Translations under genes and position numbers: made by a program | Source of the DNA: Oscillospiraceae bacterium | Lineage (GTDB): Bacteria > Bacillota > Clostridia > Oscillospirales > Acutalibacteraceae | Assembly: GCA_910574995.1 (NCBI GenBank) | Contig: CAJTCS010000006.1 | Span: forward strand, 81,979 to 105,978 | Length of the DNA stretch: 24,000 nt | Direction: 5' to 3' | Part shown: positions 1,188-24,000 of the stretch, piece by piece | How the letters are laid out: each line of letters opens with the position of its first letter | Position numbering within the stretch: position 1 is the first letter of the stretch | Notes under the pieces: model-generated | Seen by the model: only the letters and a program-made list of their open reading frames with translations | Database searches by the model: none | Told to the model about the DNA's origin: nothing

Positions 1188-1294
1188 CCTCTTATCCCCT
1201 TTGCTTTTTCTTCATTATAAGCGATGGAAGGATAAAAATCCACCAGCGGATGTTGGCAATTCCGCCCTTACATTTAACATACGGAGGGATCATC

Positions 1295-2239
1295 ATGACC
1301 GCAAAAGACCGCTATCAGGCAGGTCGTACCGATCTGGTGTACTGGCTGCGTTCCCATGGTGAGGCGCTGAAGAAATCAGGCAGCGAGTGGGAATGGAAAT
1401 ACCATGACGAGCGCGTTACCATCCGGGGGCACCTCTGGTTCGACCAGTACACCCAGGTGGGCGGCGATGCCGTGAAGTTTTTGCAATACTTTTATGGATA
1501 CTCCGAGGAAGATGCTGTTGCCTCCCATCTGGGCTGTGCCGTCAGCGAACTGGCAAAGGGCCAGCCCCACAGTTATACCAAAAGTATAACCGCCCCGCCG
1601 CGGGAAACTAAAATCGAATTGCAGCCGCCTGCCGCAAACAAGAGTATGCGGCGGGTTTTTGCTTACCTGTGCCAGACCAGAGGCATTTCTTCGGAAGTGG
1701 TATCTGCTTTCGCCCACGCCCATCTGCTCTATGAGAGTGCCGATAAGCACAACGCCGTATTCGTGGGCCGGGACGGGCAGGGAAAACCCCGGCACATCCA
1801 TATGCGGGGGACGCTGACAGGCTCCGGGTTCCGGCAGACGCTGGCGGGGAGTGAGAAAGCCTACAGTTTCAATTATGCGGGGACGGGGCGGCTACTTTAT
1901 GTGTTTGAAGCGCCCATAGACCTTCTGTCTTATATCTCGCTGCACCCAGAGGGCTGGCAGGAGAATTCCTATGTGGCGCTGTGCGGTGTGGGGATTTCCC
2001 CCATCGAGCGGCTTCTGGATGAGGTGACGCAGTTGGAGGAAGTCACCCTGTGCCTGGACAACGACCAAGCCGGGCATGACGCGGCGGTGAGGATCGCCAA
2101 GCAATTGCTGGATGGGTGGGAGGTAACAGTCACGGCCCACTTCCCGGGTTATAAGGACTGGAACGAAGAACTGCAGGCCAGCAGAGGGATGATACAGGAA
2201 GAAGAAAATGGCATACAGATGGCCGGGCTGGCCATGTAA
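1295..2239 (+). CDS. DUF3991-like / Toprim domain protein (conjugative-element DNA-processing, primase-like)
   Basis: GGAGGG lies 6 nt upstream of ATG 1295; the longer ORF start at 1250 has no RBS. C-terminal Toprim motifs are LYVFEAPIDLLSY (acidic E) and LCLDNDQAGHDAA (DxD). The gene sits beside the coupling protein, as in Firmicute ICEs. Confidence 0.75.
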   Translation: MTAKDRYQAGRTDLVYWLRSHGEALKKSGSEWEWKYHDERVTIRGHLWFDQYTQVGGDAVKFLQYFYGYSEEDAVASHLGCAVSELAKGQPHSYTKSITAPPRETKIELQPPAANKSMRRVFAYLCQTRGISSEVVSAFAHAHLLYESADKHNAVFVGRDGQGKPRHIHMRGTLTGSGFRQTLAGSEKAYSFNYAGTGRLLYVFEAPIDLLSYISLHPEGWQENSYVALCGVGISPIERLLDEVTQLEEVTLCLDNDQAGHDAAVRIAKQLLDGWEVTVTAHFPGYKDWNEELQASRGMIQEEENGIQMAGLAM

Positions 2240-2972: not shown

Positions 2973-3046
2973 GCCCCGTCCTTTGATTTCCTTTCCATTA
3001 TAAAAGGTTTTGAAAAGAAAGACAAGCAGAGAAAGGTGTGGATACA

Positions 3047-4813
3047 ATGCCGCAAAATGTAGGAACATTGATTTTAACCGCCGGGCTTATGTTCGGAATC
3101 CTGGCCGGGATCACTGCTCTGGCCAACCACTACTCGCTGAACATTAAAGCAAAAACCGTGGGCAACGGCCAACACGGCACGGCCCGATGGGCCACCCAGA
3201 GTGAGATTGCCCGCACTTATGTCAAGGTAGATTTCACCCCGCAGCTCTGGCGAAAGGGGAAGAATCTGCCCACAGAGCAGGGCATCGTGGTGGGGTGCAA
3301 GTCGGGCAAAACAGGCACAACGGCGCTGGTGGATACGGGCGACGTCCACGCTGTTATGATTGGCGCCGCAGGCGTGGGAAAGACTGCCTTTTGGCTGTAC
3401 CCATGCATTGAATATGCCCTGGCGACAGGGATATCCTTTCTAAATAGCGACACCAAGGGGGACGTTTTTCGGAATTACGCTGGCATTGCCAAGGAGAAAT
3501 ATGGGTACCAGGTTTCCGTCCTGGACTTGCGAAACCCCACCAGAAGCGATGGCTTCAACCTGCTGCACTTAGTGAATAAATACACAGACTTATTCAAAGA
3601 AACAAAAACCCTGGCCCATAAAGCCAAGGCGGAAAAATATGCCAAAATCATTGCCAAGACCATCATCATGGCCGGGGAGGGGAATGCGAATTTCGGGCAG
3701 AATCAGTTTTTTTACGACGCGGCAGAAGGGCTGCTCACCTCTGTGATCCTGTTGTCCGCTGAGTTCTGCAGGCCGGAAGAAAGGCACATTGTCTCCATCT
3801 TCAAGCTGATCCAGGAACTGCTGGCCCCCAGCAAGGTCAAAGGAAAAACACTGTTCCACATCCTCATGGACGCCCTGCCGCCAGAGCACAAAGCCAGGTG
3901 GTTTGCGGGGGCTGCGCTGTCGACCGGCGAGCAGTCCATGTCATCCGTTATGTCAACCGCCCTCTCAAAGCTAAACGCGTTTTTAGACTCCGAATTGGAG
4001 CAGCTTCTGTGCTTTGGGACAGCTATAGACGCGGAAATTTTCTGTAAGGAGAAGTCCGCCATCTTCCTGGTCATGCCAGAGGAAGATCCTAATAAATTCT
4101 TCATGGTATCCCTGGTGATCCAACAATTGTACCGGGAGATCCTCTCCGTGGCGGATGAGAACGGAGGGAAATTGCATAACAGAACTATATTTTTCGCAGA
4201 CGAGTTTGGCACTTTGCCTAAAATTGAATCCGCAGAAATGATGTTTTCTGCCTCCCGCTCCCGCCGCCTGAGCATCGTGCCTATCATCCAATCCCTGGCC
4301 CAGCTTGAAAAAAATTACGGCAAGGAGGGCGCGGAAATTATCGTAGATAATACACAGTTAACAATTTTTGGAGGCTTTGCCCCCAACAGCGAGACAGCCC
4401 AGGCCATGAGCAAATCCCTGGGGAGCCGCACTGTGCTGTCTGGTTCTGTAAATCGCGGGAAGAACGACCCCAGCCAGTCCCTGCAGATGATGGAGCGTCC
4501 TCTCATGACACCAGACGAGCTGAAGTCCATGCCCAAGGGCGAGTTTATCGTCATGAAAACGGGAGCCTATCCCATGAAGGTCAAACTAAAATTGTTCTTC
4601 AAGTGGGGCATCACCTTCGGGGAGCCGTACCAGGTGCCGGAGCATGGGGATCGGCAGGTGCGGTATGCCAGCCGGGAGAAGCTGATGCAGGCCATCCGGG
4701 GGAAATATCCGCCGCCCAAACGGGAAACTGCGGCAGAGCAGGAACCGCCAGCGCAGGCGAAGATAAAGCTGGAATGGGACGATGGGAAGGCGGGAGATCA
4801 TGGGAAAGCTTGA
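3047..4813 (+). CDS. Type IV secretion coupling protein (VirD4/TraG-like T4CP ATPase)
   Basis: An N-terminal TM segment (LILTAGLMFGILAGITALA) is followed by GNGQHGTARWATQSEI, Walker A GAAGVGKT, a Walker-B-like IFFADEFGTLPKI, and the C-terminal motif ERPLMTPDELKSMPKGEFIV typical of Firmicute T4CPs. RBS GAAAGGTG lies 8 nt before ATG 3047. Confidence 0.9.
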   Translation: MPQNVGTLILTAGLMFGILAGITALANHYSLNIKAKTVGNGQHGTARWATQSEIARTYVKVDFTPQLWRKGKNLPTEQGIVVGCKSGKTGTTALVDTGDVHAVMIGAAGVGKTAFWLYPCIEYALATGISFLNSDTKGDVFRNYAGIAKEKYGYQVSVLDLRNPTRSDGFNLLHLVNKYTDLFKETKTLAHKAKAEKYAKIIAKTIIMAGEGNANFGQNQFFYDAAEGLLTSVILLSAEFCRPEERHIVSIFKLIQELLAPSKVKGKTLFHILMDALPPEHKARWFAGAALSTGEQSMSSVMSTALSKLNAFLDSELEQLLCFGTAIDAEIFCKEKSAIFLVMPEEDPNKFFMVSLVIQQLYREILSVADENGGKLHNRTIFFADEFGTLPKIESAEMMFSASRSRRLSIVPIIQSLAQLEKNYGKEGAEIIVDNTQLTIFGGFAPNSETAQAMSKSLGSRTVLSGSVNRGKNDPSQSLQMMERPLMTPDELKSMPKGEFIVMKTGAYPMKVKLKLFFKWGITFGEPYQVPEHGDRQVRYASREKLMQAIRGKYPPPKRETAAEQEPPAQAKIKLEWDDGKAGDHGKA

Positions 4814-6405: not shown

Positions 6406-6933
6406 ATGACGATGGATGAGATTTGTTGTTATGAATTGGCCTATCAGATTCGCCTTTACCTTGATATATGCAGAATAAGTGAATCGCAATTTGCCGAAGC
6501 TGTCTCCATCCCTTGCAAAGATATCACCCATTTTTTGATACATCAACAACCGGATCTGTCTATAGCTCAGATTTCCCAAATCTGCGATATGTTACACATT
6601 TCTTTGGATTCATTGGTTAGAGGGCCTGTTGAAGAAAGAAATTTCAGCATTCTTTTAAAGAAATGCGCTTTGGTGGGAAAGTGGAAAGGTACAGTTTTTT
6701 ATGATGCCTGCCTTTTCTTTCTGAAACGGTGGCAGAGAAAAAACATCTCTTCTGCCTGTTTGGATCGCTATACACAGTGGTTCATCTATTTCTGCTCAAC
6801 AGATGAAACCTCCGTATATAGCAATGAGTGTGCCTTCCGGGCTGTCCCATCCACTGTCTGCTTCACCAGAAAAATTTCAGAAAAGAAAGCGGAAAAGCTA
6901 AAACAGATCATAGAGGATTCCAAGAAAAAATGA
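6406..6933 (+). CDS. Hypothetical protein with degenerate XRE-like HTH N-terminus; its stop overlaps the start of the M56 gene
   Basis: ISESQFAEAVSIPCKDITHFLIHQQPDLSIAQISQICDMLHISLDSLV resembles an HTH_3 domain. The gene is AT-rich relative to its neighbours. Its TGA at 6931-6933 overlaps ATG 6930 of the next gene (ATGA). Confidence 0.5.
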   Translation: MTMDEICCYELAYQIRLYLDICRISESQFAEAVSIPCKDITHFLIHQQPDLSIAQISQICDMLHISLDSLVRGPVEERNFSILLKKCALVGKWKGTVFYDACLFFLKRWQRKNISSACLDRYTQWFIYFCSTDETSVYSNECAFRAVPSTVCFTRKISEKKAEKLKQIIEDSKKK

Positions 6934-8021
6934 CCGTCACGATCCATTCCATCCTTAACAGCGCGCTGTGGGGCCTGTTGCTTTCCTTGGCCTTGTCGCT
7001 GTTGAGCCGAAACAAACACTTCCTCTGCCGGTTGGGGACGGCGCCTCTCACCATTCTGGCTATCGTCTGCCTGGTTCGCTGCTGTATACCTGTGGAGTTC
7101 CACGCTACCCAGGAAGTGGGGACAGCGGCACTCAATCGTCTGCACCAGCTTATCGGCGGGGCGGCGGGCTCGCTTCTCCCGGAACCATGGCTTTTTAGGC
7201 TATGGTCTGTTGGAGCCATCGCGGGGGCTGTTCTGTGGGTGCCCGGGTACACATACAGGCTTCTTGCAGCCCACAAGCTGCCAGGCTCACAAGATAACCG
7301 CATAGAAAAATTCCGTTTTCAGCACAATATCCCCAGCCTGCGTGTATCCATATCAACAAATGTATCTACTCCCTGTGTTATAGGGATTTGGCGGGGGACT
7401 ATCCTGCTCCCCGACACTACCTACACGGCAAAACAGCTAGAATTGATTTTACAGCACGAATACTCCCATATCCGGCACCATGACGGCCTGCGGGATCTCC
7501 TGCTCCGGGTGCTCTGCACCATCTTCTGGTGGAATCCGGGTGTCCACATCTGCCGGGTTGTTATCACGCGTCTCTGCGACCACCGCTGTGACAGGGAGGT
7601 TTTGGACGTAGCCCGCCCCAGCGCCAAACGCTATTATTGCAGGACACTCCTGGCTTTCGCCAGCAGCCGGCCCGGCTCCTCCGGACAGCTTGCCGCGTCC
7701 TCCTTGAAAAGCCGGTTTTATTTGATTTTATACAGCACAGGCAAACAAAGAAGGGCCTGGGCGGCTCTGGTTATTCTGTTGGTTGTCACACTGTGGCTGC
7801 TCAGTTACCTGGTAATTTTCCAGCCCGCCTATCAGCCTGAAAGCCTCGACTATACAGATTTCGCACTTGAAAGCGGCACCATTACCCTGCGCAATGACGG
7901 GCGTTATGTCCTCGAAGCCGAACAGGGGGAAGTGCAGCTTACTCGTGAAACCGCACAAGCCATGCTTGCGGACGGGTTCCGCATGGAAATAAATCAAATG
8001 ATGGAGGTGCCATATCAATGA
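6930..8021 (+). CDS. M56 family (BlaR1/MecR1-like) membrane metalloprotease / signal transducer
   Basis: The HExxH zinc motif sits in LQHEYSHIRHHDGL, followed by WWNP, as in peptidase M56. There are N-terminal TM helices and a late TM (AWAALVILLVVTLWLLSYLVIF) before a short C-terminal ectodomain. The start is set at ATG 6930, because the ORF-track start at 6828 lies inside the previous gene. Confidence 0.8.
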   Translation: MTVTIHSILNSALWGLLLSLALSLLSRNKHFLCRLGTAPLTILAIVCLVRCCIPVEFHATQEVGTAALNRLHQLIGGAAGSLLPEPWLFRLWSVGAIAGAVLWVPGYTYRLLAAHKLPGSQDNRIEKFRFQHNIPSLRVSISTNVSTPCVIGIWRGTILLPDTTYTAKQLELILQHEYSHIRHHDGLRDLLLRVLCTIFWWNPGVHICRVVITRLCDHRCDREVLDVARPSAKRYYCRTLLAFASSRPGSSGQLAASSLKSRFYLILYSTGKQRRAWAALVILLVVTLWLLSYLVIFQPAYQPESLDYTDFALESGTITLRNDGRYVLEAEQGEVQLTRETAQAMLADGFRMEINQMMEVPYQ

Positions 8022-10366: not shown

Positions 10367-10843
10367 ATGCGGGAAAAGACCTGCTGCTTCACCGGCCACC
10401 GCAACATACCGCCAGAAGAAGTAGAGGGCATCCGGCAAAAGCTGGAAGCGACCATCCTGGAACTGTACAGCCAGGGCGTCATTTATTACGGGGCCGGGGG
10501 CGCGCTGGGCTTCGATACCCTTGCAGCCGAAGCAGTCCTGCACTTACGGGATAATGGCTGTCCCAACCTGCGGCTGATTTTAGTGCTGCCCTGCCCGGAT
10601 CAGACCAGGGGCTGGAAAGCAGAAAACATAGCGCGGTATGAGGAAATTAAGGGAAGGGCAGACAAAATCGTGTACACCAGCCAAGCCTATACCCCCGGCT
10701 GTATGCACAAGCGCAACCGCCACCTGGTGGACAACAGCAGCGTGTGCGTCTGCTACCTGACCCAGAACCGGGGCGGCACGGCCTATACAGCAGGTTACGC
10801 AGAAGAACACAGGCTCCATGTGATAAACATCGCAAAGATGTAG
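10367..10843 (+). CDS. SLOG superfamily protein, DUF1273 / YpsA-like
   Basis: The N-terminus KTCCFTGHRNIP...LYSQGVIYYGAGGALGFDTLAAEAVLHLR matches the DUF1273 signature (F.GHR......G...F..GGA.G.D...AE.VL.L). RBS GAGGGAG lies 7 nt before the ATG. Confidence 0.75.
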   Translation: MREKTCCFTGHRNIPPEEVEGIRQKLEATILELYSQGVIYYGAGGALGFDTLAAEAVLHLRDNGCPNLRLILVLPCPDQTRGWKAENIARYEEIKGRADKIVYTSQAYTPGCMHKRNRHLVDNSSVCVCYLTQNRGGTAYTAGYAEEHRLHVINIAKM

Positions 10844-10856
10844 AAAGAGGGGGCGT

Positions 10857-11288
10857 ATGTTACAATTTAAAGACGGCAAGTTCCATGCTTATGGCCTATC
10901 CTTTGCCCTGCCGGATGGGTTCTATTTAGATAGTGATCCTGACACGCCCTATGAATACGGGCTGTGCTGCTGCTCACCTGACGAAACAATATATTATGGC
11001 ATCTATGTGGACTGTGAGCATGAGGATCTCCGGGAGGGAATAGAGTTGCTTTTTGAGCCGGGAAGCGGTATGTACCAGACATCCGAAATAAGACCTGTTG
11101 TGTTAAACGGGCTGGCTGGCTTCGAGGTTACTTCCTATGACAGGGAATGCGATTACTATGAAACCCACCTTCAGGCATCGGAAGGCCCTGTGCTTATCTT
11201 TCATGCCCACTGTGAAAAGGGCCGGCTCGCGGACATAAAACATCACCCGGATACGCAAGCTGTCCTGCAGGCCATATCGGCGGATTGA
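10857..11288 (+). CDS. Hypothetical protein; stand-alone copy of the unknown domain fused to the Spo0A_C-like protein
   Basis: RBS AGAGGGGG lies before ATG 10857. MLQFKDGKFHAYGLSFALPDGFYL...CCCSP...HPDTQAVLQAISAD aligns along its full length with MLQFVDGRFHAHGVSFTLPNGFYL...CCLSP...NPSVQALLQTIRAE from 9618-10043. Confidence 0.7.
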   Translation: MLQFKDGKFHAYGLSFALPDGFYLDSDPDTPYEYGLCCCSPDETIYYGIYVDCEHEDLREGIELLFEPGSGMYQTSEIRPVVLNGLAGFEVTSYDRECDYYETHLQASEGPVLIFHAHCEKGRLADIKHHPDTQAVLQAISAD

Positions 11289-11337: not shown

Positions 11338-11378
11338 GAAAGCCAGGAATGCAAGCTAGAACCGTATTTCTGGCTTTC
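11338..11378 (+). other. 9-bp stem hairpin between promoter and nuclease-RT start
   Basis: GAAAGCCAG (11338-11346) pairs with CTGGCTTTC (11370-11378) around a 23-nt loop. The left arm abuts the -10 box, so the TSS may fall inside it. Either the promoter call or the RNA-hairpin interpretation may therefore be wrong. Confidence 0.4.
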
Positions 11379-11405
11379 AGTATATCCCGAAAGGGTGGGA
11401 GTCCC

Positions 11406-14291
11406 GTGAAAATCGTAAGCTGGAACGTCAACGGTCTGCTGGCCTGCATGGAGAAAGGCGGCTTTTTCCCCATTGCCCGTATGCAGCCGGACATCGTGTG
11501 CTGCCAGGAGGTTAAGACCCACCAGCAGCCGGAGGTGCTGCCCGGATATCACCACTACTGGAACCCCAGCCAGCGCCACGGCTACGCCGGAATGCTTACC
11601 ATGTGCCAGCAGGAACCGCTCTCTGTCCGCAGGGGGCTGGGCGTCCCTGAGTTGGACATGGAGGGGCGGCTTCTAACTTTGGAATTCCCCTCCTTTTTCC
11701 TCCTGAACGCCTACTTCCCCAATTCACAGGACGGGCCGCACCGCCGCGCATACCGGGGCGCGTGGGATGCGGCCTTTTTTGATTTTGTGCGGAGGCTGGA
11801 ACAGGAAAAACCCGTGGTGATCTGCGGCGATTTCAACGTGACCCGTTCGACAATAGACGTTTTCCCCGGCAATACCCGGCTTATGGAAGCAGAAGCCGGG
11901 TACATGTCAGAGGAACGGGCGGCGCTGGAAAAGCTGCTGGCAAGCGGGTTTGTGGACGTTTACCGGCATATAAACCCGGAACAGGCCGGGGCTTACACCT
12001 GGTGGAGCCACCGCTTCCACAAGCGGGACAGGGACGACGGCTGGCGGCTGGATTACTTCCTGGTATCCCGGAAAATCAGCCGGAAAATCGGCGCTGTTGC
12101 CCATCACGCGGAAATCCTGGGGTCCGATCATTGCCCTGTGGGGCTGGACATACACCTTTCCTGGCAAAGCACACTGCCATATCAAAAGGGGCAGGTACGG
12201 CAGAAGCGCCCGAAAATTGACTTCCCGGACGAGTACCTGGCCGAGCTATGGGAGCAAACGGATTGGGACGCCGCAGAGGAAGCCCTGGCAAACCTTCAGC
12301 GGGAACTGGCCCAGGCCGCTTCCCACAGGGACATGGAGAAAATCACGGCGCTGCAAAAACGGCTGGTACGGCTGCCCGTATGCAAATTCCTGGCTGTGCG
12401 CAGGGTGTGCGCCGGAAACTCCGGGCCGGGGCTGGACGGGGTAAAGTGGAAAACCGCCGCCGACAAGGCACGGGCCGCGCTTCTGCTCAATTCCGATGGC
12501 TACCGGGCACAGCCCCTGCGGAATATCAAGGTACATTCAAAGTCTACAGGCCGCGACCGCATGATGGGCCTGCCCACCTTTTTCGACCGGGCCATGCAGG
12601 TACTCTACGGCTTCTCCCTCCTCCCTGTGCTGGAAGCCTGGGCAGAGAAAAAGTCCTTTGCGTTCCGGGAGGGGCGTTCCATGCAGGACTGCCATGCCTA
12701 TATCCTGCAAGCCCTGCAAGGCCGGGACGCGCCGGGGCTGGTGCTGCTGGCAGATGTGCAGGCGTACTATTCCCACATCCAGCACGGCTGGCTGCTGGAA
12801 AATGTGCCCATGGACAAGAAGGTGCTGGGGGAATTCCTGCGGGCCGGGTATGTGTTCGCCGGGGAACTGTTCCCGGAAGAAGAAGCGGGGTTGTCCCTGG
12901 GTTCCAATATCTCTCCAGCCCTTGGGAACTTTGTGCTGGATGGTTTACAATCCTATATTTATAAACAGCTCTATGGCACAGGGCCGATAGACTATCCAAA
13001 CGGTTCCCTCGTCCGCTTTGCCGATGACCTCCTGATAACCGTCCGGACAGGGCAGGACGCAAAGGACATCCAGGCCATCGTCGAAGATTTCCTCCGGCAG
13101 CGCGGGCTTATGCTCTCTGGGAAGAAAACAAAGGTTGTTCCCGTGTATGACGGCTTTACTTTCATGTCCCACCACTACCAAAAGAGGGACGGTTGGGTTT
13201 ACACCGCCCCGTCCCGTTCTGCCATTGACCGATGCAAGCAGGGGCTTCATGAGCTGATAACCACCCACAAGCGTTCCCAAAGGGAATTGATAGAATCCGT
13301 CAACCGCAAGCTCACCGGCTGGGCCACCCACCACCGCTACACAGACGCACAGGCGGCGTTTGTGGAAATAGATGGGTATGTGGACAAGCTGCTGCACCAG
13401 TCGGCCTACTCCAAGCACCCCCGCATGGCCCCCAAAAAGGTAGACAGCCGGTATTGGTTCCAGACCCCGGCAGGGGCCAGCTATTATGCCCTGCCAAACA
13501 GCCGCCACATCCATGTGAAGCACCTGTCCGACGTGCCTATAGTAGAAGCCTATGAAAAGCTGGATATGCGCAAAAACCCCTATGTGGACAGGGAATACTT
13601 CCGGCAGCGCCATGACAGGCAGGCCATCGAAAAAATGACAGGGAAATACCGCACGGTCTGGAAGCGCCAGGAAGGGCGGTGCTATTACTGCGGCAGGCCC
13701 ATCCTGCCCGGCCAGCCCCGGCCAGTGGTGCCGGTTGACTTGGAACAAGGGCCGCTGGTTTCCAACCTCGCGTACATCCATACCGCTTGTAAAGCCAACG
13801 AATTGCAGGTACGGGATGTGCTGGGGGACGTAACCGTATACAGCCCCAGGGAGCTGCTGGAAGCTGTGCCGGAAGTTGAAACGGCTGGCTTGCCGGAACC
13901 AAGCCGTAAAACAAAAGGCCCCATTGGCGCGGGCTGGATACATATGCCGCTAAAGCAATGGTTTGCAAAACAGACGGCGGCATCTATCACATTGACCTTT
14001 GCGGAACTGGAAAAAATCGACCATCGACCCCTGGCCCCCTCTGCCCGGAACAGCCGGGCCAACTGGTACACCCGGCCCGACAAGAACGCCATGGCCGAGG
14101 CATGGGTGACAGAGGGGTATAAGATTTTCCGGTTGAGCCTGGAAAAAGAAAAGGTGACGTTCCATCGTGTCCTGGAGGGGGCGTCCCATGTGAAGCTGCC
14201 AGGGTGGCTTAAAGAAGGAAAGATACCGGATGGAGCTGCGGCAGAGATAGAAGGGTTTTTGGCGTATATCAAGGGGAAATACGGGCTTTGA
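11406..14291 (+). CDS. Fusion protein: ExoIII/APE-type EEP nuclease + group-II-intron-like reverse transcriptase with maturase/thumb + Cys/His knuckle + unknown C-terminal domain
   Basis: GTG 11406 lies after GGGTGGGAG and gives VKIVSWNVNG, the usual ExoIII N-terminus; ATG 11349 gives the longest ORF. EEP motifs: SWNVNG, CQEVK (E at 11508), GDFNV (11826-11840), WRLDYFLVS, GSDHCPV (12120-12140). RT motifs: NSGPGLDGV (12420-12443), LLADVQAYYSHI, SNISPALGNFVL, VRFADDLLI (FADD at 13017-13028), SGKKTKV, DGFTFMSH. Thumb/X domain: LTGWATHHRY (13311-13340). CYYCG...HTAC spans 13680-13790. Confidence 0.85.
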   Translation: MKIVSWNVNGLLACMEKGGFFPIARMQPDIVCCQEVKTHQQPEVLPGYHHYWNPSQRHGYAGMLTMCQQEPLSVRRGLGVPELDMEGRLLTLEFPSFFLLNAYFPNSQDGPHRRAYRGAWDAAFFDFVRRLEQEKPVVICGDFNVTRSTIDVFPGNTRLMEAEAGYMSEERAALEKLLASGFVDVYRHINPEQAGAYTWWSHRFHKRDRDDGWRLDYFLVSRKISRKIGAVAHHAEILGSDHCPVGLDIHLSWQSTLPYQKGQVRQKRPKIDFPDEYLAELWEQTDWDAAEEALANLQRELAQAASHRDMEKITALQKRLVRLPVCKFLAVRRVCAGNSGPGLDGVKWKTAADKARAALLLNSDGYRAQPLRNIKVHSKSTGRDRMMGLPTFFDRAMQVLYGFSLLPVLEAWAEKKSFAFREGRSMQDCHAYILQALQGRDAPGLVLLADVQAYYSHIQHGWLLENVPMDKKVLGEFLRAGYVFAGELFPEEEAGLSLGSNISPALGNFVLDGLQSYIYKQLYGTGPIDYPNGSLVRFADDLLITVRTGQDAKDIQAIVEDFLRQRGLMLSGKKTKVVPVYDGFTFMSHHYQKRDGWVYTAPSRSAIDRCKQGLHELITTHKRSQRELIESVNRKLTGWATHHRYTDAQAAFVEIDGYVDKLLHQSAYSKHPRMAPKKVDSRYWFQTPAGASYYALPNSRHIHVKHLSDVPIVEAYEKLDMRKNPYVDREYFRQRHDRQAIEKMTGKYRTVWKRQEGRCYYCGRPILPGQPRPVVPVDLEQGPLVSNLAYIHTACKANELQVRDVLGDVTVYSPRELLEAVPEVETAGLPEPSRKTKGPIGAGWIHMPLKQWFAKQTAASITLTFAELEKIDHRPLAPSARNSRANWYTRPDKNAMAEAWVTEGYKIFRLSLEKEKVTFHRVLEGASHVKLPGWLKEGKIPDGAAAEIEGFLAYIKGKYGL

Positions 14292-14335: not shown

Positions 14336-14528
14336 GGTTTAAAAGCCGTTACATGTATTCCCCATACAATATAAGCCGGTTCTTATATGTAGGAATTTCA
14401 CAAAACAGAGAGAGCGTTCCCGTTGGTATTTTGGCTGGATTGGATATGGATACCCCGCCGAAATCTTGGTAATATGTAGAGAGCAAAGGATAAAGAAAGG
14501 GGGAGCCTCACTGGATACATTTACAAAC

Positions 14529-16664
<2,136 letters not shown>

Positions 16665-17343: not shown

Positions 17344-19941
17344 ATGAGCAAGAAAATTTTAGCGGCCCTGCTTGCTGTTATGATGGTGCTGTCTTTGGTG
17401 CCCATGACGGCTTTGGCGGCAGAGGAACCGGATGTTATCCGTGCGCCTTTGGGAGATACCACCAATAAATATCCGTCGAATTTACTTAATATTGACGGAT
17501 ATGAAGTTGCGTATGAGGAAGACTCAACCATTACCGAAGAAGATGTTACGGCCTATAAGGTTGCCGTGACACACCCCGCCCTGCTGAAACATTCCAATAA
17601 TGCAAACCCGCAGGTTTCTGGCCTTTGGGTAGGCATTGGTGTCAAAATCACTACGCCAGGTGAGGGCGAAGGAAAAGACGGGACTGGAAGCTCGTATTTT
17701 GCCTTTGTGACCGACAAGACAGACTTTTCTGAAATTGCAGGAGTATTCAAAGAAAAGGACTGGGCAGGTCAAGGCGTTGCGGGCTATTCCGAGTATGGCT
17801 GGCGTGCACATGAGAATGGCTATGTATTCCAGTGGTATAACCTTGCCGATACAACAAAATATGAAGGCAAGACCCCCTATCTGGTGGAGCGCAACCCCCA
17901 GGAAAACGGCGGCTATACCTACAAAGCATACAAGCTTGATTTCGATGTGACAGAGGGCCATCTCGTAAAATATGAGGCCCCCCTTACTGGCAGCCTGTCT
18001 GTTGAGGCCAATGGTCAAAAAGTTAGCGCTGCGGGCACTCCCGTTGCAAAGGGCACAGAATTGACCATCACCGCAACACCGGAAGAGTATTTTAAGATCA
18101 AAGCGGTCAAGGCCGGAGAGACGGAGTTGGAAGCGGCGGCTGACGGCACTTATAAGACTACCGTGAACGCGGACGTAACCATTTCCGTTGAGTTCGAGAC
18201 AGACTCAGAAGCCACCGGTATGGTTGGCGCCCCGGCAGTACAGGATGTGCCTGATACCATTACGGGTGACAACGCTACTTTGGCTAATAGTGTAAAAACG
18301 GAACTGGCAAAATCGGACGCTGTAACTTTTGACAACACTGTTATGCAGGCCGCCGCCGCTAAAGAGGCTGCAAAGTCTAAGGAGACCGGCGCAACAGGCC
18401 TGACTGCGCTGCAAGCCAGCGGCATTACAAACAGCGAAGTGACGAATGTCGATACTGCAGAGGGTGTAAACATTGCGGTACTCACTTACATGGATATTTC
18501 TATCACGGATGCAGTCAGTGAGAATGGAACTACCGGTTCTGTTACGCTGGATATCCAGCCGAGGGCTAAAACAATTGCAACTGTGAAGAACCTTGAATCC
18601 GAAGCAAATAGCATTGTCATACTGGACGAAGAGAAAACCAATGTTGCCACAGCTAACACTGTTGAACTCAGCGATGAGGAAATCACCATCGATAGCCCTA
18701 CGGATGTGAGTTTAACATTGCCTGCCGGGTTCCTGAGTAATGGAACCTATACGGTAGAACACAAAAAGACTACGGGCCAGAATTACTACTATGATGGCAC
18801 AGTGACCAGTAACATGCTTTCTTTCACAAGCCAGCACGGGTTCAGCGAATTCACTATACCTTCTGCCACGACCCCGGTTGCCGAAGTAAACGGCACAAAG
18901 TTTGCAACCCTTGAAGATGCCATTGCCAATGTCAACGGCGGGACTATTGTATTGTTGGCGGACAATTTGCCCGCCACTGTCAATACTGCTATGACATTTA
19001 CTGTCAAGAGCAAGGACGGGGAAACCTTTACAGCTGCTATTACTGCTGGTTCTTCTGTAAAAATGTCAACTGTAGACAATGGAGATGGCAGTATAACATA
19101 CACCTTTACTTCCAAGGGTAGCGGCTCCACTGGCGGTTCCAGCGGCGGCTCCTCCGGCACCAGCGGCAACATTACGGTCACCAAGCCCGCTAACGGCACC
19201 GTGACCACCACCCCCAGCAGCGCCAAAGAAGGCGACAAGGTAACTGTGACCGTCAAGACCGACGCGCCCTACTACATCGTGACCGGCATCACCGTCAAGG
19301 GCGAAAACGGCAACGTTGTTGCCACCAAGAACGCCGACGGCACCTACAGCTTCACCATGCCCAAGGGCAGCGTGAGCGTGAGCGCCACAATCAGCCATAT
19401 TTACAACCTGTTCAAAGACGTACCCACCGACATTGCCGAGTACGGCACAGCCATCAAGTGGGCTGTAGAAAAGGGCATCACCCTGGGCACCGACACAGTT
19501 GCCTACAGCACCTTCAGCCCCTACAACCCCTGCACCCGCGCCCAGATGGTCGTGTTCCTCTACCGCGCGGCGGGCAGCCCCACTGTGACCGGCACAAACG
19601 CCTTTACCGACGTTCCCAACGATGCCGAGATCCAGAAGGCTGTCCAGTGGGCCGTAAGCAAGGGCATCACCAAGGGCACCAGCGACACGACCTTTGACCC
19701 CTACGCCCCCTGCACCCGCGGCCAGATGGTGACCTTCCTGCACCGCAACCACAGCGAGCCTGCGGCCACCGGCAGCAACAATTTTGCCGATGTGCCCGCC
19801 GACGCTTTCTACAAGACTGCTGTGCAGTGGGCAGTAAACGAGGGCATCACCAACGGCACCGGTGATACTACCTTTGCCCCCAACGATGCCTGCACCCGCG
19901 TGCAGATGGTGACTTTCCTGTATCGGGATATGGGGAAGTAA
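17344..19941 (+). CDS. Large secreted cell-surface protein with three C-terminal SLH (S-layer homology) domains
   Basis: TAGGAGG RBS. Signal peptide MSKKILAALLAVMMVLSLVPMTALAAE. Gly/Ser linker GSGSTGGSSGGSSGTSG at about 19117-19167. Three SLH units: FKDVP...AIKWAVEKGITLG...CTRAQMVVFLYR, FTDVP...AVQWAVSKGITKG...CTRGQMVTFLHR, FADVP...AVQWAVNEGITNG...CTRVQMVTFLYR. Confidence 0.9.
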   Translation: MSKKILAALLAVMMVLSLVPMTALAAEEPDVIRAPLGDTTNKYPSNLLNIDGYEVAYEEDSTITEEDVTAYKVAVTHPALLKHSNNANPQVSGLWVGIGVKITTPGEGEGKDGTGSSYFAFVTDKTDFSEIAGVFKEKDWAGQGVAGYSEYGWRAHENGYVFQWYNLADTTKYEGKTPYLVERNPQENGGYTYKAYKLDFDVTEGHLVKYEAPLTGSLSVEANGQKVSAAGTPVAKGTELTITATPEEYFKIKAVKAGETELEAAADGTYKTTVNADVTISVEFETDSEATGMVGAPAVQDVPDTITGDNATLANSVKTELAKSDAVTFDNTVMQAAAAKEAAKSKETGATGLTALQASGITNSEVTNVDTAEGVNIAVLTYMDISITDAVSENGTTGSVTLDIQPRAKTIATVKNLESEANSIVILDEEKTNVATANTVELSDEEITIDSPTDVSLTLPAGFLSNGTYTVEHKKTTGQNYYYDGTVTSNMLSFTSQHGFSEFTIPSATTPVAEVNGTKFATLEDAIANVNGGTIVLLADNLPATVNTAMTFTVKSKDGETFTAAITAGSSVKMSTVDNGDGSITYTFTSKGSGSTGGSSGGSSGTSGNITVTKPANGTVTTTPSSAKEGDKVTVTVKTDAPYYIVTGITVKGENGNVVATKNADGTYSFTMPKGSVSVSATISHIYNLFKDVPTDIAEYGTAIKWAVEKGITLGTDTVAYSTFSPYNPCTRAQMVVFLYRAAGSPTVTGTNAFTDVPNDAEIQKAVQWAVSKGITKGTSDTTFDPYAPCTRGQMVTFLHRNHSEPAATGSNNFADVPADAFYKTAVQWAVNEGITNGTGDTTFAPNDACTRVQMVTFLYRDMGK

Positions 19942-20018: not shown

Positions 20019-20270
20019 TCATGTCCTCATCAGCACAAACCACCGGCCGCTGTCCTCAAATAAATGCGTTTCCTTGCCTTTTACCACAACCGTGTACTGC
20101 TTGGCGATTTCATGGGTAGTATGGTCTTTTGTCAGCCCCACCCGCTTCACTTCCTCTATGTCGAACTCACCTACCAGGGGGATGTGGATCGTCCGGGGCC
20201 GCACTTCCCCGTCCACATAATGGGTGGCTAAAACCTCAACGTATTGTTTCCGTCTGCTCTCCGTTAGCAT
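20019..20270 (-). CDS. Hypothetical small protein (83 aa)
   Basis: ATG 20270 has GGGGA 7 nt upstream. No motif I recognise. Its 5' end overlaps the upstream ORF by 35 nt. Confidence 0.5.
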   Translation of the reverse strand: MLTESRRKQYVEVLATHYVDGEVRPRTIHIPLVGEFDIEEVKRVGLTKDHTTHEIAKQYTVVVKGKETHLFEDSGRWFVLMRT

Positions 20271-20571
20271 GGCTGAAATCCCCCTGCAAATCGTAAATGT
20301 CCGTAAAAGGGATGAACGTGCCCGACAGCACCAGGGCCTGGGCCAGCTCGTCCACTTCCTCTACTATGTCCGTTTCCGTCACATACTCGCCTATCTCATA
20401 GTCCCCGATGGCTTTCCGCAGGCAGAAGTAGGTGACTGTCACCCTGTCCCCCGCGCTGATCTGGCACAGCCTGCGTTCCAAGACCTCCTGCATATCCTCC
20501 GACAGCCACGCCCTCTCTATGAGGGCGTTTTCTTTTTCCTTTGTCAGAACGGCGATATCGAAACCTCTCAA
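20236..20571 (-). CDS. Hypothetical protein, loosely YolD-like; start unclear
   Basis: DRVTVTYF...G.Y..G.V...D.....L.L.G.FIPFTDIYDLQGD resembles the YolD-like pattern (V.hTYh...G......G.h..hD....L.h.....I.F.DI.Dh). This is by-eye resemblance only. The TTG start at 20571 has no convincing RBS. Confidence 0.4.
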   Translation of the reverse strand: MRGFDIAVLTKEKENALIERAWLSEDMQEVLERRLCQISAGDRVTVTYFCLRKAIGDYEIGEYVTETDIVEEVDELAQALVLSGTFIPFTDIYDLQGDFSHANGEQTETIR

Positions 20572-20729: not shown

Positions 20730-20758
20730 TTGCAAAATCGTATAATTCATGATATATT
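20730..20758 (+). promoter_or_regulatory. Candidate SigA-type promoter of the SIR2-NTPase gene
   Basis: TTGCAA (20730-20735), a 17-nt spacer, then TATATT (20753-20758), within a ~200-bp AT-rich intergenic region. Confidence 0.55.
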
Positions 20759-20771
20759 GGTAAAAAGGTAA

Positions 20772-23700
20772 ATGGAGGGGTCTATTTTGTTATATTCTTT
20801 TGAAGAAATCATGGCGTACCATCCGGATAACATAAATGTATATAATGAAATCAAGCGGTCTTTATCCAAGCTGGTTCCCTTTGTCGGGGCCGGGCTGACC
20901 CAGTTTGCTTACTGTTCATGGTCTAAGGCACTTAAGGCTCTTGCCCAAAAACTGACAAATACGAAGAATAAGCAGGAAGTAGATGCACTGATTAAGGAAG
21001 AACACTATATGGACGCAGCCCAAAAGCTGGAGGAGCTGCGGACGCCGGCAAACCTTGCCCATGACATAGTCGGCCTCTTTTCAGGGGACAAGCTGGACGC
21101 CAAACGGGAGCAGCTCCGAAAAGAGCCAATCGCCCTGTTACCCTTTCTGTTTCCTGGACTTGTGTTGACCACAAATTTTGATGAAACGTTGGAAACCATA
21201 TACAGGGAATGCGGGCATCCCTTTGACTGTCCTCTTTTCCCAGGCCACCCGGAACTGCTCAGTGGACTGCTTCGCGAAGATGGAACCAGTGGCCTGCTGA
21301 AGCTTCATGGCTCCATAACTGGCGGGCTAGTTGAATACAGCAAAATTGTGTTTACAAAAGAACAGTATGACAGGCACTATGGAATAGGTAGCCCTTTAGT
21401 AGAAGAATTAAAATTCTGCTTTAAAAATAGGATGATGCTCTTCTTAGGGTGTAGCCTCAAGGATGACCGCACCATGGAACTGCTGCAGGAGATAATCAAA
21501 CCTGGCTGCTATTACTACACGATTATCAACTGTAAAAGGGCCGAGCGGGATGAAAAAATTAAGCAGTTAGGTGAGAGGCACATCCGGGCTATCGTATATG
21601 AAAACAACCGCCATGAAGCAGTCCGAGTGATACTGGAACACCTGCTGGAAGAAACCAACCCTGACGCTTATCATGCGCTCCCGGTTCATGTAGGAGCGTT
21701 AAAGTCCATCAATATGTCGGAACGATTCTCCTACAAAGCGGAAATCATCCCCTTTACAGGCCGAAAACGGGAACTGGAAGAACTCCAGGCGTTTCTGGGG
21801 GAGCCGGATATTGCGTTCCGATGGTGGGCGGTTACAGGGCCGGGCGGGGCAGGAAAAAGCCGGCTGGCCTATGAGCTTAAAAAGCAAGCTTCTTTAGACT
21901 GGGACGTGCGGTATCTGGGAACGGAGGATTATGAGGACTTGCCCCGGCTGACGGAAAACCTTTCAGGGAAAACACTGCTGGTTGCGGACTACGTGCAGGA
22001 ACACGCAAGGGCTATTGGAAAATGGATGGCCCTTCTCAGGGAATATCCCCGCAGCCTTCCTATCCGGGTTCTGCTAGTGGAGCGGAACACGGGGGAGAAG
22101 CTAGACGGGTTTGGATGGACGGAGCAGCTATATGAGGACGTCCGCCACACAAAAGAATTGCGGGATGCCTGCTTTCGTGAATCATTCCTGGCACTGCAGT
22201 CCCTGCCGGACGAAGATCTGTTGGATGTCATGGGAGATTACGCTCTGGCTGTCAGACCGGGCACCAGCCTGCCTGACAGCCAGAAACAGGCCCTGCTCCA
22301 AAAGCTTAAAACCATAGACCCGGAACTGTGCCGCCCGCTGTATGCCCTGTTTTTGACGGATGCGTATATAAATGGGCAGAATCCGGAGCGGTGGGATAGG
22401 AATGACGTTTTGAATTACATAAAGGAGCGGGAGGAAAGACGGCTGAAATTCAATATAAAGCAGGTGCTGGGGGGAATAGATAAGAAGCTTTGGAATGCCT
22501 GCCTGTGGCTACAGTACACGGCAACCGTGCTTCAGAATGCTTCCTTACAGGATTTGAAGCTGCTTTGCCCCGAAGCCTGGGTGGTTATTGAAATGAAAGA
22601 GGAAACCGTAGGTTCTGCTGATTCCCCAGAGGATATGCTGGAGCAGATAGGGCTTGCGGCAAATGGGCAGGTGCCGGCCCTGCGCCCGGATTTGATAGGG
22701 GAATACGCAGTGTACACCTGGTTGCTGGAGCACCCGGAGAAAAGCCAGGACTTCCTTACGGCTGTATGGGAAAAGCCTTTACCTGCGACTGTGTTTTTTG
22801 AGATGCTAATTAGTGACTATGGCTATTTATTAAACGAAAGCCCAAAACACTGGGAACTTCTTCTGTCAGAGTATGTTCCCATATCAGAGGAAGCAGCATT
22901 ATGGTATGCATGCCTTTTGGCAAATTCTACAGCTTTTTGCAGCATAGTGGAGGAAAGTAAACGGCAGACAGAAATACTGGAAGCGATTGCGCATAACTAC
23001 CCTAAAAATATGGCTATTGTGGAGGCTCTTGCCAGGGGCCTAGTCAATTTGAGTTGTGATCAGGATGAACAGAGGGCTTTGGAAACTGTAAAACGTCTGG
23101 AACGCCTTACAGATAAATATCCCGGCGTACAGGATATTGCGACAGAGTTCGCCACGGGCCTGTTCAATTTGAGTTGTGATCAGGATGAACAGAGGGCTTT
23201 GGAAACTGTAAAACGTCTGGAACGCCTTACAGATGAATATCCCAGCGTACAGGATATTGCGACAGAGTTCGCCAAGGGTCTGGTCAATTTGAGTTGTGAT
23301 CAGGATGAACAGAGGGCTTTGGAAGCTGTAAAACGTCTGGAACGCCTTACAGATGAATATCCCGGCGTACAGGATATTGCGACAGAATTCGCCAATGGTC
23401 TGGTCAATTTGAGTTGTGATCAGGATGAACAGGGAGTTTTGGAAACTGTAAACCGTCTGGAACGCCTTACAGATGAATATCCCGGTGTGCAGGATATTGC
23501 GATAGAGTTCGCCAAGGGCCTGTTCAATTTGAGCTGTATTCAGGATGGAGAGGGGGTTTCTGAAACTGTAAAACGTTTGGAACGCCTTACAGATGAATAT
23601 CCCGGCGTGCTGGATATCGCGATTGAGTTCGCCAAGGGCCTGTTCAATTTGAGCAGGAAACAGGATAAGCAAGGGGTCTCTGAAACTGTAAAACACTTGG

Positions 23701-24000
23701 AATGCCTTATAAAAAGGCATCCTGGCGTGCAGGATATTGCGATAGCGTTTGCCAAGGGCCTGGCCAATTTGAGCTGTATTCAGGATGAACAGGGAGCCTC
23801 TGAAGCTGTAAACCGTCTGGAACGCCTTACAGGTGAATATCCCGGCGTGCAGGGTATTGCGATAGCGTTCGCCAGGGGCCTGTTCAATTTGAGCTGTATT
23901 CAGGATGAACAGGGAACCTCTGAAACTGTAAACCGTCTGGAACGCCTTACAGGTGAATATCCCGGCGTGCAGGATATTGCGATAGAGTTCACCAGGGGCC
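20772..24000 (+). CDS. SIR2-like domain + P-loop STAND-like NTPase + 40-aa helical tandem repeats (Avs/NLR-like candidate antiphage protein), 3' end beyond window
   Basis: This ORF is absent from the ORF track because it has no stop in the window. I translated it by hand from ATG 20772, which directly follows an in-frame TAA, to nt 24000 with no stop. TTG 20787 lies 6 nt after GGAGGGG and is an alternative start. SIR2_2-like: LVPFVGAGLTQFA, LVLTTNFDETLE, LLKLHGSI, MLFLGCSLKDDR. NTPase: FTGRKRELEEL, Walker A VTGPGGAGKSRLA, Walker B TLLVADYV, RVLLVERN, LRPDLIGEYAVY. Repeats run from about 22920. Confidence 0.85.
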   Translation, partial: MEGSILLYSFEEIMAYHPDNINVYNEIKRSLSKLVPFVGAGLTQFAYCSWSKALKALAQKLTNTKNKQEVDALIKEEHYMDAAQKLEELRTPANLAHDIVGLFSGDKLDAKREQLRKEPIALLPFLFPGLVLTTNFDETLETIYRECGHPFDCPLFPGHPELLSGLLREDGTSGLLKLHGSITGGLVEYSKIVFTKEQYDRHYGIGSPLVEELKFCFKNRMMLFLGCSLKDDRTMELLQEIIKPGCYYYTIINCKRAERDEKIKQLGERHIRAIVYENNRHEAVRVILEHLLEETNPDAYHALPVHVGALKSINMSERFSYKAEIIPFTGRKRELEELQAFLGEPDIAFRWWAVTGPGGAGKSRLAYELKKQASLDWDVRYLGTEDYEDLPRLTENLSGKTLLVADYVQEHARAIGKWMALLREYPRSLPIRVLLVERNTGEKLDGFGWTEQLYEDVRHTKELRDACFRESFLALQSLPDEDLLDVMGDYALAVRPGTSLPDSQKQALLQKLKTIDPELCRPLYALFLTDAYINGQNPERWDRNDVLNYIKEREERRLKFNIKQVLGGIDKKLWNACLWLQYTATVLQNASLQDLKLLCPEAWVVIEMKEETVGSADSPEDMLEQIGLAANGQVPALRPDLIGEYAVYTWLLEHPEKSQDFLTAVWEKPLPATVFFEMLISDYGYLLNESPKHWELLLSEYVPISEEAALWYACLLANSTAFCSIVEESKRQTEILEAIAHNYPKNMAIVEALARGLVNLSCDQDEQRALETVKRLERLTDKYPGVQDIATEFATGLFNLSCDQDEQRALETVKRLERLTDEYPSVQDIATEFAKGLVNLSCDQDEQRALEAVKRLERLTDEYPGVQDIATEFANGLVNLSCDQDEQGVLETVNRLERLTDEYPGVQDIAIEFAKGLFNLSCIQDGEGVSETVKRLERLTDEYPGVLDIAIEFAKGLFNLSRKQDKQGVSETVKHLECLIKRHPGVQDIAIAFAKGLANLSCIQDEQGASEAVNRLERLTGEYPGVQGIAIAFARGLFNLSCIQDEQGTSETVNRLERLTGEYPGVQDIAIEFTRG
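23040..24000 (+). repeat. Tandem 120-bp coding repeats, 8 full copies in the window and continuing past the edge
   Basis: Units start at 23040, 23160, 23280, 23400, 23520, 23640, 23760 and 23880. Unit 1 and unit 2 differ at 6 of 120 nt by hand alignment. Consensus: L(V/F)NLSC(D/I)QDEQ..(L/S)E(T/A)V(K/N)RLERLT(D/G)EYPGVQDIA(T/I)EFA.G. A degenerate unit lies at 22920-23039. Confidence 0.95.

Follow-up and report, generated by a model that had tools for sequence, protein, structure and literature searches.

Does the long frame that closes a 24,000-nucleotide stretch of DNA from an Oscillospiraceae bacterium encode an immune protein, and if so, of which kind? The stretch (assembly GCA_910574995.1, contig CAJTCS010000006.1, positions 81,979 to 105,978 of the forward strand) is called the window below, and its positions are counted from its first nucleotide. 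A first-pass annotation had proposed that the frame encodes a SIR2 - STAND-like NTPase - repeat protein with the logic of Avs5-type and other NLR-like immune proteins. We conclude that the gene probably encodes a stand-alone NLR-like immune sensor acting most likely by abortive infection, a reading to which we give a probability of about 70%. It draws on the order of the domains, their intact conserved residues, the kinship of the fold, the finding that no partner gene is conserved and the variation among the repeats, all of which were observed.

Gene, SIR2 domain and NTPase

The frame, described at first as free of stops from 20772 to the end of the window, was confirmed: it opens directly after an in-frame TAA at 20769 and continues for 1076 codons, a run whose chance occurrence at roughly 50% GC is about 4e-23. 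The coding sequence occupies 20787..24000 on the plus strand, where the window covers residues 1-1071 of 1162 (residue numbers count from the TTG at 20787). The full open reading frame (ORF) was retrieved by a homology search, which returned an identical 1162-aa protein (P0001) from assembly GCA_910576355.1; its contig, CAJTIG010000002.1 (487 kb), matches the window with 0 mismatches across 13214 nt. A normal stop closes the ORF 275 nt beyond the end of the window (window-equivalent 24273-24275), so that it is not a pseudogene; truncation is likewise ruled out by the identical full-length product on record and the exact contig match. The gene had also been described as missed by the ORF track; it is indeed absent from the ORF list, but only because ORFs that run off the end of the source are not reported. 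Its start codon is probably the TTG at 20787 rather than the ATG at 20772: the TTG is the start in the public record and aligns with the N-termini of homologues, and the ATG overlaps a ribosome-binding site read from the sequence (GGAGGGG, 20774..20780, plus strand, 6 nt upstream of the TTG), so that it is probably unused.

The N-terminal part of the protein (residues 1-296; 20787..21674, plus strand) is a SIR2-type effector domain, which, as proposed, is of the SIR2_2 type, judged by a score of 70 bits for Pfam PF13289 against a gathering cutoff of 24.5 (E 3e-19). All six motifs quoted at first pass were located, namely PFVGAG (20877-20894, with the GAG motif, residues 31-36), TTNFD (21168-21182, with Asn130 and Asp132), KLHGS (21300-21314, with the HG motif and His174) and FLGCSL (21441-21458) in the SIR2 domain, and GPGGAGKS (21837-21860) and LLVADY (21975-21992) in the NTPase. 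N130, D132 and H174 are invariant among 66 homologues, down to about 33-37% identity, and a catalytic role of the Asn/Asp of TTNxD and the His of HG has been demonstrated for Avs5, ThsA and DSR2 (PMC12931631). When the profile of the 66 homologues was compared with solved structures, it matched the SIR2 domain of Avs5 (E 8e-15), human FAM118B (4e-14), ThsA (5e-10) and KomC, and the best PADLOC matches of the domain were SIR2-type LmuA (7e-14) and ThsA (1e-9). Its nearest sequence relatives are the NADases Avs5, ThsA and FAM118B, not the canonical PF02146 sirtuins. The domain is therefore a candidate NADase, predicted to act through Asn130 and His174.

The chemistry could still differ from bulk NAD+ depletion: in an immune sensor of the same build, the SIR2 domain might transfer ADP-ribose to a macromolecule of the phage or the host, or it might produce a signalling nucleotide. 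Hydrolases and transferases are inseparable by sequence, and ATP affects the NADase activity of EfAvs5 in a complex, partly inhibitory way, indicating that SIR2-STAND enzymology is not uniform (PMC11897194). However, according to the papers cited in PMC12931631, all characterised defence SIR2_2 domains (ThsA, DSR1/2, SIR2-HerA, SPARSA and Avs5) deplete NAD+, and no conserved downstream effector gene that could receive a signal is present in 21 loci compared (see below), which makes such a chemistry very improbable.

The SIR2 domain is followed by a linker modelled with lower confidence (residues 297-325; 21675..21761, plus strand; predicted local distance difference test, pLDDT, about 62-81) and by a nucleotide-binding oligomerisation domain (NOD) with nucleotide-binding, helical and winged-helix-like parts (residues 326-700; 21762..22886, plus strand), delimited by motifs, hidden Markov models (HMMs) and a structural model. 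GPGGAGKS and LLVADY are its Walker A and Walker B motifs; LLVERN (22071-22088) with Arg433, the GxP-like RPLYA (22329-22346) and LRPDLIGEY (22680-22706) follow on the same strand. G354, G356 and K357 of Walker A, D401 of Walker B, R433 and P517 are invariant in the 66 homologues. R433 sits after the strand that follows Walker B, and R516 and P517 are the invariant residues of the RPLYA motif, which resembles the GxP motif of STAND proteins. The cutoff of nSTAND_NTPase5 (PF25199), 34 bits, is passed by the homologues P0057 (36.3 bits) and P0054 (34.3 bits), which are 49-52% identical to the window protein, and more remote relatives reach 38.5 and 40 bits; the window protein's own score is taken up below. 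The AlphaFold model of residues 310-735 has a pLDDT of 91.5, and its top Foldseek matches were the NB-ARC domains of NRC1-4, ZAR1 and Roq1, together with MalT, EfAvs5, SAMD9 and Apaf-1. The AAA+ proteins Orc1/Cdc6, RuvB and RFC score similarly to STAND proteins against this model, so that the fold alone leaves a generic AAA+ protein possible. Fold, conserved motifs and the above-cutoff scores of homologues together bear out the STAND-type NTPase claimed at first pass.

A search with the NOD alone against representatives of 50%-identity clusters found 2425 relatives (E≤1e-3). The heads of related NODs vary: some carry SIR2, some SMEK_N, some trypsin next to a trypco2 gene and some an unknown domain about 170-230 residues long, whereas others have almost no head; the C-terminal repeats are often classical TPR_10/TPR_12. 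Such modular swapping of effectors and sensors is a hallmark of NLR-like conflict systems (PMC12803255, PMC8195603). In the window protein, HMMs and model place SIR2 domain, NOD and sensor in this order within a single polypeptide. The full-length model (pLDDT 89.7) has as its best solved match the SIR2-STAND protein EfAvs5, with the whole-protein Avs5 entries 9jap and 9nc9, followed by SAMD9, the AVAST5 filament, DSR2 and an archaeal STAND-TPR protein.

The repeat array and its variation

Behind a degenerate N-terminal capping helical hairpin, recognised from sequence units and model (residues 701-738; 22887..23000, plus strand), the C-terminus consists of 40-residue (120-nt) helix-turn-helix repeats (23001..24000, plus strand). 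Where the first-pass annotation had seen a repeat array, we found ten helical units in perfect register (residues 739-1138), 8.3 of them inside the window, each modelled as two 17-residue helices; the array reaches window-equivalent 24200 and is closed by a 24-residue C-cap. For 23031-24000, Tandem Repeats Finder reported a period of 120 nt with 8.1 copies and 87% matches. The unit is 40 and not 34 residues long; the summed TPR_6 score is 29.8 bits (cutoff 26.3), with no single significant stretch, and the best sequence-profile matches of the repeats were designed helical repeat proteins.

The units are strikingly alike in DNA, with 83-96% identity among seven of the eight internal ones (units 2-5 and 7-9); the sixth is 72-80% identical, and both terminal units are more diverged. 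Differences between units cluster at unit positions 8, 9, 12, 15, 20, 25-27, 29, 31 and 38. Positive selection in the repeats is not demonstrated: overall dN/dS among units is 0.49, and pN exceeds pS at the 11 variable positions only as a description, since these positions were picked after the data had been seen.

Full-length relatives were found in gut Clostridia-type genomes, including Lachnospiraceae, Oscillospiraceae, Eubacterium plexicaudatum ASF492, mouse-gut isolates D16-36 and MGBC metagenome-assembled genomes; a scan of JGI metagenomes returned no closer alleles. The homologues number more than 400. The array starts at about residue 740 across the family and comprises between about 2 and about 14 units among the aligned sequences, with an internal identity ranging from very low to about 0.87. 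The longest was found in an isolate genome (Bacterium D16-36, from mouse gut; locus L006, 1179-6875), whose protein of about 1900 aa has about 28 divergent 40-aa units. Close alleles differ in unit number: P0005, P0006 and P0007 share the same C-terminus and are 99.7-99.9% identical in their first 700 residues, and what sets them apart is that exactly one unit, or exactly three, have been lost in register; further close pairs differ by 40, 80 or 120 residues.

These observations suggest, tentatively, that the array is a fast-evolving receptor that switches specificity by unequal recombination, through gain, loss and shuffling of units, as a bacterial counterpart of the fungal NLRs of high internal conservation, here joined to a SIR2 NADase and at work in gut Clostridia; we regard this as possible but doubtful. 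On such a receptor, the substitutions at the eleven variable unit positions would lie on one helical face. If it were true, the diversification of a sensor could be observed directly in gut metagenome time series. The near-identical repeats and the polymorphism of their number in any case offer a tractable example of how bacterial NLR sensors gain specificities, and the repeats could serve as a natural engineering scaffold.

The gene could also be real and its array partly an artefact of assembly, with the number or order of units wrong and the allelic polymorphism technical. The source is of the metagenome type and short-read, seven of the eight internal units are very similar, as given above, many homologues lie on contigs of 3-5 kb that end in or near the gene, and the deletion junctions fall within identical sequence. 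Against this, the identical 1162-aa product is found on two contigs, the frame is kept over ten units without indels, and the longest array, with its divergent units, comes from an isolate. Moreover, every unit of the window differs from every other, so that reads of ≥150 nt can order them. We consider an artefact extremely improbable.

An antisense ORF of 226 aa (23040-23720, minus strand) lies entirely within the repeat array. Since the opposite strand of the repeats is free of stops, homologues too show antisense ORFs of this sort. It is most likely a shadow ORF rather than a gene.

Proposed mechanism and known SIR2 and STAND systems

In EfAvs5 and PaAvs5, a phage protein triggers ATP-dependent assembly, activation of the SIR2 domain and hydrolysis of NAD+ (PMC11897194, PMC12931631). 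Along similar lines, we infer that the window protein oligomerises, is an NADase and has an immune role, and we infer likewise the nature of its trigger. At rest, the protein would be an autoinhibited, nucleotide-bound monomer. Its C-terminal solenoid of 40-residue hairpins would bind a trigger, most likely a protein of a phage or of another mobile element, the predicted contact being the concave face made up of helix-A positions 8, 12 and 15. This binding would free the nSTAND5-type NOD, which would then bind ATP and oligomerise. In the oligomer, the SIR2 domains at the N-termini would come together in active form, NAD+ would be hydrolysed through Asn130 and His174, and the infected cell would be arrested, blocking the spread of the phage. 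Specificity would reside in the repeat array and would shift as whole units are gained, are lost or diverge.

Avs5 offers the closest comparison. Like the window protein, EfAvs5 and PaAvs5 are single-gene systems, in which an N-terminal SIR2_2 domain carrying GAG and TTNxD is followed by a STAND NOD in the centre and by a sensor of helical repeats at the C-terminus. The Avs5-type logic noted at first pass thus holds for the SIR2-NOD-repeat order, but not as membership of the Avs5 family: NCBIfam NF041814 (cutoff 1000) and the Avs5 model of PADLOC score 12 and 13 bits, in the SIR2 region only. It is also in this region only that the sequences can be aligned (for 9nah, over residues 26-227). The NTPases belong to different clades, probably nSTAND5-type in the window protein and nSTAND3 in PaAvs5 as annotated in PMC12931631; PF20720 (nSTAND3) has no match in the window protein at E≤1, its best NTPase matches being AAA_16 and nSTAND_NTPase5. 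The window protein is longer (1162 aa, against about 770-830 for Avs5), its sensor consists of ten regular 40-aa units, mostly near-identical, in place of an irregular TPR, Sel1 or PPR domain, and its family is hosted by gut Clostridia, whereas Avs5 is found in Proteobacteria.

The NOD itself is homologous to that of nSTAND_NTPase5 (PF25199) proteins such as the Streptomyces trypco2 plus trypsin-nSTAND5-TPR system (29% identity over 158 aa, E 1e-12), with which it shares FxGR, Walker A, LLVxDY, RVLLxxR and PDxxGEY. The nSTAND5 proteins also end in repeats, there of the TPR type and classical TPR_10/TPR_12, and where the window protein has SIR2 they carry SMEK_N, an unknown domain or, with trypco2 as the partner gene, a trypsin-like protease. 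DSR1 and DSR2 likewise combine an N-terminal SIR2 NADase with a long C-terminal helical-repeat sensor, which binds a phage structural protein; they have no NTPase between effector and sensor, where the window protein has a complete NOD. ThsA of Thoeris and the SIR2-type LmuA of Lamassu share the catalytic motifs of the window SIR2 domain, but ThsA needs a SLOG domain and the TIR partner ThsB, and LmuA needs LmuB and LmuC. No SLOG domain is present in the window protein, and the 21 loci have no conserved neighbour that could be ThsB, LmuB or LmuC.

The repeats recall another group of proteins, fungal and some actinobacterial and cyanobacterial NLRs (HET-E/D, with 42-residue TPR-like repeats), in which units are 80-90% identical and vary in number (10.1101/2020.01.06.895854, PMC4986451). 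Near-identical repeats and allelic differences of whole units are also seen in the present family, here in short-read assemblies. The window protein differs from these NLRs in its 40-residue unit, its SIR2 effector, its nSTAND5-type NTPase in place of NACHT or NB-ARC, and its host, a gut Firmicute; classical NLR architectures are rare in Firmicutes according to the survey of Dyrka et al. (10.1101/2020.01.06.895854, PMC4986451).

SIR2-STAND immunity has been worked out so far only in proteobacterial Avs5, and the present family places the same effector-switch-sensor logic on a different, nSTAND5-type STAND lineage. It is found mainly in gut Clostridia (Lachnospiraceae and Oscillospiraceae), in which phage defence is poorly charted and genetics is hard. 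If its predicted function is right, it would add one more system to defence catalogues. The three-part architecture will not surprise specialists, and the regular, polymorphic repeat sensor is its most noteworthy feature. The family has no model in the PADLOC 2023 set, its members are labelled at NCBI only as 'SIR2 family protein', and a literature search on nSTAND5 or on this family in Lachnospiraceae found nothing in the library searched.

A plasmid of Bacillus wiedmannii, ppl277 (locus L090, 3953-7312), encodes an independent 1119-aa SIR2_2 - NB-ARC - TPR protein, which is the same three-part logic on yet another STAND clade.

Genomic context and neighbouring genes

We compared the flanking ORFs of 21 loci all against all. 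No neighbour family recurred beyond three closely related genomes, and the lack of a flanking gene common to the 21 loci indicates a single-gene system. A multi-gene system was rejected on the same data, in which the highest-ranking 'shared' clusters consisted of the gene and of the antisense shadow ORFs inside it.

The window copy lies in mobile DNA, with conjugation genes upstream, tyrosine recombinases downstream, and a gene for an endonuclease-reverse transcriptase fusion (EEP-RT), a NYN-domain protein gene and a resolvase gene. A DUF3991-Toprim protein (1250-2239, plus strand) and a TraG/VirD4-type type IV coupling protein (3038-4813, plus strand) make the left part of the window look like a conjugative element. 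Outside the window, about 260 nt downstream of the gene, overlapping genes for three tyrosine recombinases of 403, 319 and 346 aa stand in a row (locus L001, 13753-16948), a trio which we take to resemble a recombinase-in-trio element. Other homologues adjoin a serine recombinase or an rve integrase. Such settings would suit the same machine if it were aimed at, or served, mobile elements, either as cargo that excludes rival plasmids or integrative and conjugative elements or as an addiction-type stabiliser. Many homologues, however, are found in chromosomal housekeeping settings with no mobile genes near, and the characterised SIR2-STAND proteins answer phage proteins (PMC11897194, PMC12931631). 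A role in conflicts between mobile elements is thus unlikely, and phage sensing remains the preferred function.

The housekeeping settings raise in turn the question of whether the protein has an immune role at all. Among single homologue loci (L088 8001-11321, L087 8001-11132 and L086 8001-11666), copies lie directly after hrcA-grpE-dnaK-dnaJ, after groES-groEL beside NAD synthase, or downstream of NAPRTase. A STAND signalling protein whose repeats bind a cellular ligand or client, and whose SIR2 domain is a regulated deacylase or ADP-ribosyltransferase, for instance in stress or NAD homeostasis, would be in keeping with these neighbours and with the presence among STAND clades of non-immune regulators such as MalT, itself one of the fold matches. 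The chaperone and NAD genes are nevertheless confined to single loci and do not recur in the 21, so that we rejected their adjacency as a functional clue, curious as the NAD genes are beside an NAD-consuming sensor. The SIR2_2 domain is nearest to NADases and not to PF02146, and the swapping of trypsin and SMEK heads, the patchy distribution, the variable location and the polymorphism in repeat number are typical of conflict systems. We therefore hold a non-immune role to be quite improbable and retain that of an immune sensor.

Several results weigh against an immune sensor of this kind. The window protein scores 25.2 bits with nSTAND_NTPase5, below the cutoff that its homologues pass, and 26 bits with AAA_16, also below the Pfam cutoff. 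None of the whole-protein models in PADLOC or NCBIfam recognises it. The repeat-number differences were drawn from short-read assemblies, which are able to collapse repeats. No phage-borne copy was found, and plasmid matches cover single domains only. A scan of ten neighbouring window ORFs against PADLOC gave no defence-model match, the EEP-RT protein returning only generic RT/DRT-type matches. Finally, several homologues are placed amid housekeeping genes (dnaK operon, groESL, NAD synthesis) and not in defence islands, which leaves the evidence from context mixed.

The region upstream of the gene had been described as an AT-rich gap containing its own promoter, the gene being lower in GC than its neighbours. 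The gap is real (215 nt, 32% GC), but the gene departs only modestly, its GC content being 48.8% and that of the remaining window 52.8%. A promoter-like site with an extended -10, TTGCAA-17 nt-TG-TATATT, matches the consensus at 20730..20758 (plus strand), 29 nt upstream of the start codon; three such sites are present against 1.7±1.3 expected from shuffles, so the promoter was found as a consensus match without being significant. Rfam detected no regulatory RNA in the AT-rich leader, the sole match (Termite-leu) being sub-threshold (22 bits against 51) and covering the terminator-like hairpin of the upstream minus-strand gene. Two overlapping small ORFs of 83 and 111 aa (20019-20270 and 20236-20571, minus strand) diverge from the SIR2-STAND gene, and a strong terminator-like hairpin is located beside them (20018-19987). 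We rejected these ORFs as partners, since neither belongs to a Pfam or PADLOC family and homologues lack them as conserved neighbours.

The EEP-RT protein (980 aa; 11349-14291, plus strand) contains an N-terminal Exo_endo_phos domain (APE-like, E 5.6e-22) followed by RVT_N, RVT_1 and GIIM, the maturase domain of group II introns, and by a tail of about 270 aa. Nuclease and RT thus stand in the order known from LINEs, here in a bacterium; Rfam detected no group II intron RNA in the window. It is flanked by a YpsA/SLOG-family protein (10367-10843, plus strand), a 143-aa orphan (10857-11288, plus strand) and a 478-aa protein (14466-15902, plus strand) with a NYN nuclease domain scoring 24.9 bits, barely above cutoff. 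No PADLOC model matched these three flanking proteins, which together with the EEP-RT protein may form an uncharacterised conflict-type cluster. Other cargo-like genes, all on the plus strand, encode a Sel1-repeat protein (20-715), a BlaR1-type M56 peptidase (6828-8021) and an 865-aa SLH-domain surface protein with InlB-type B-repeats (17344-19941).

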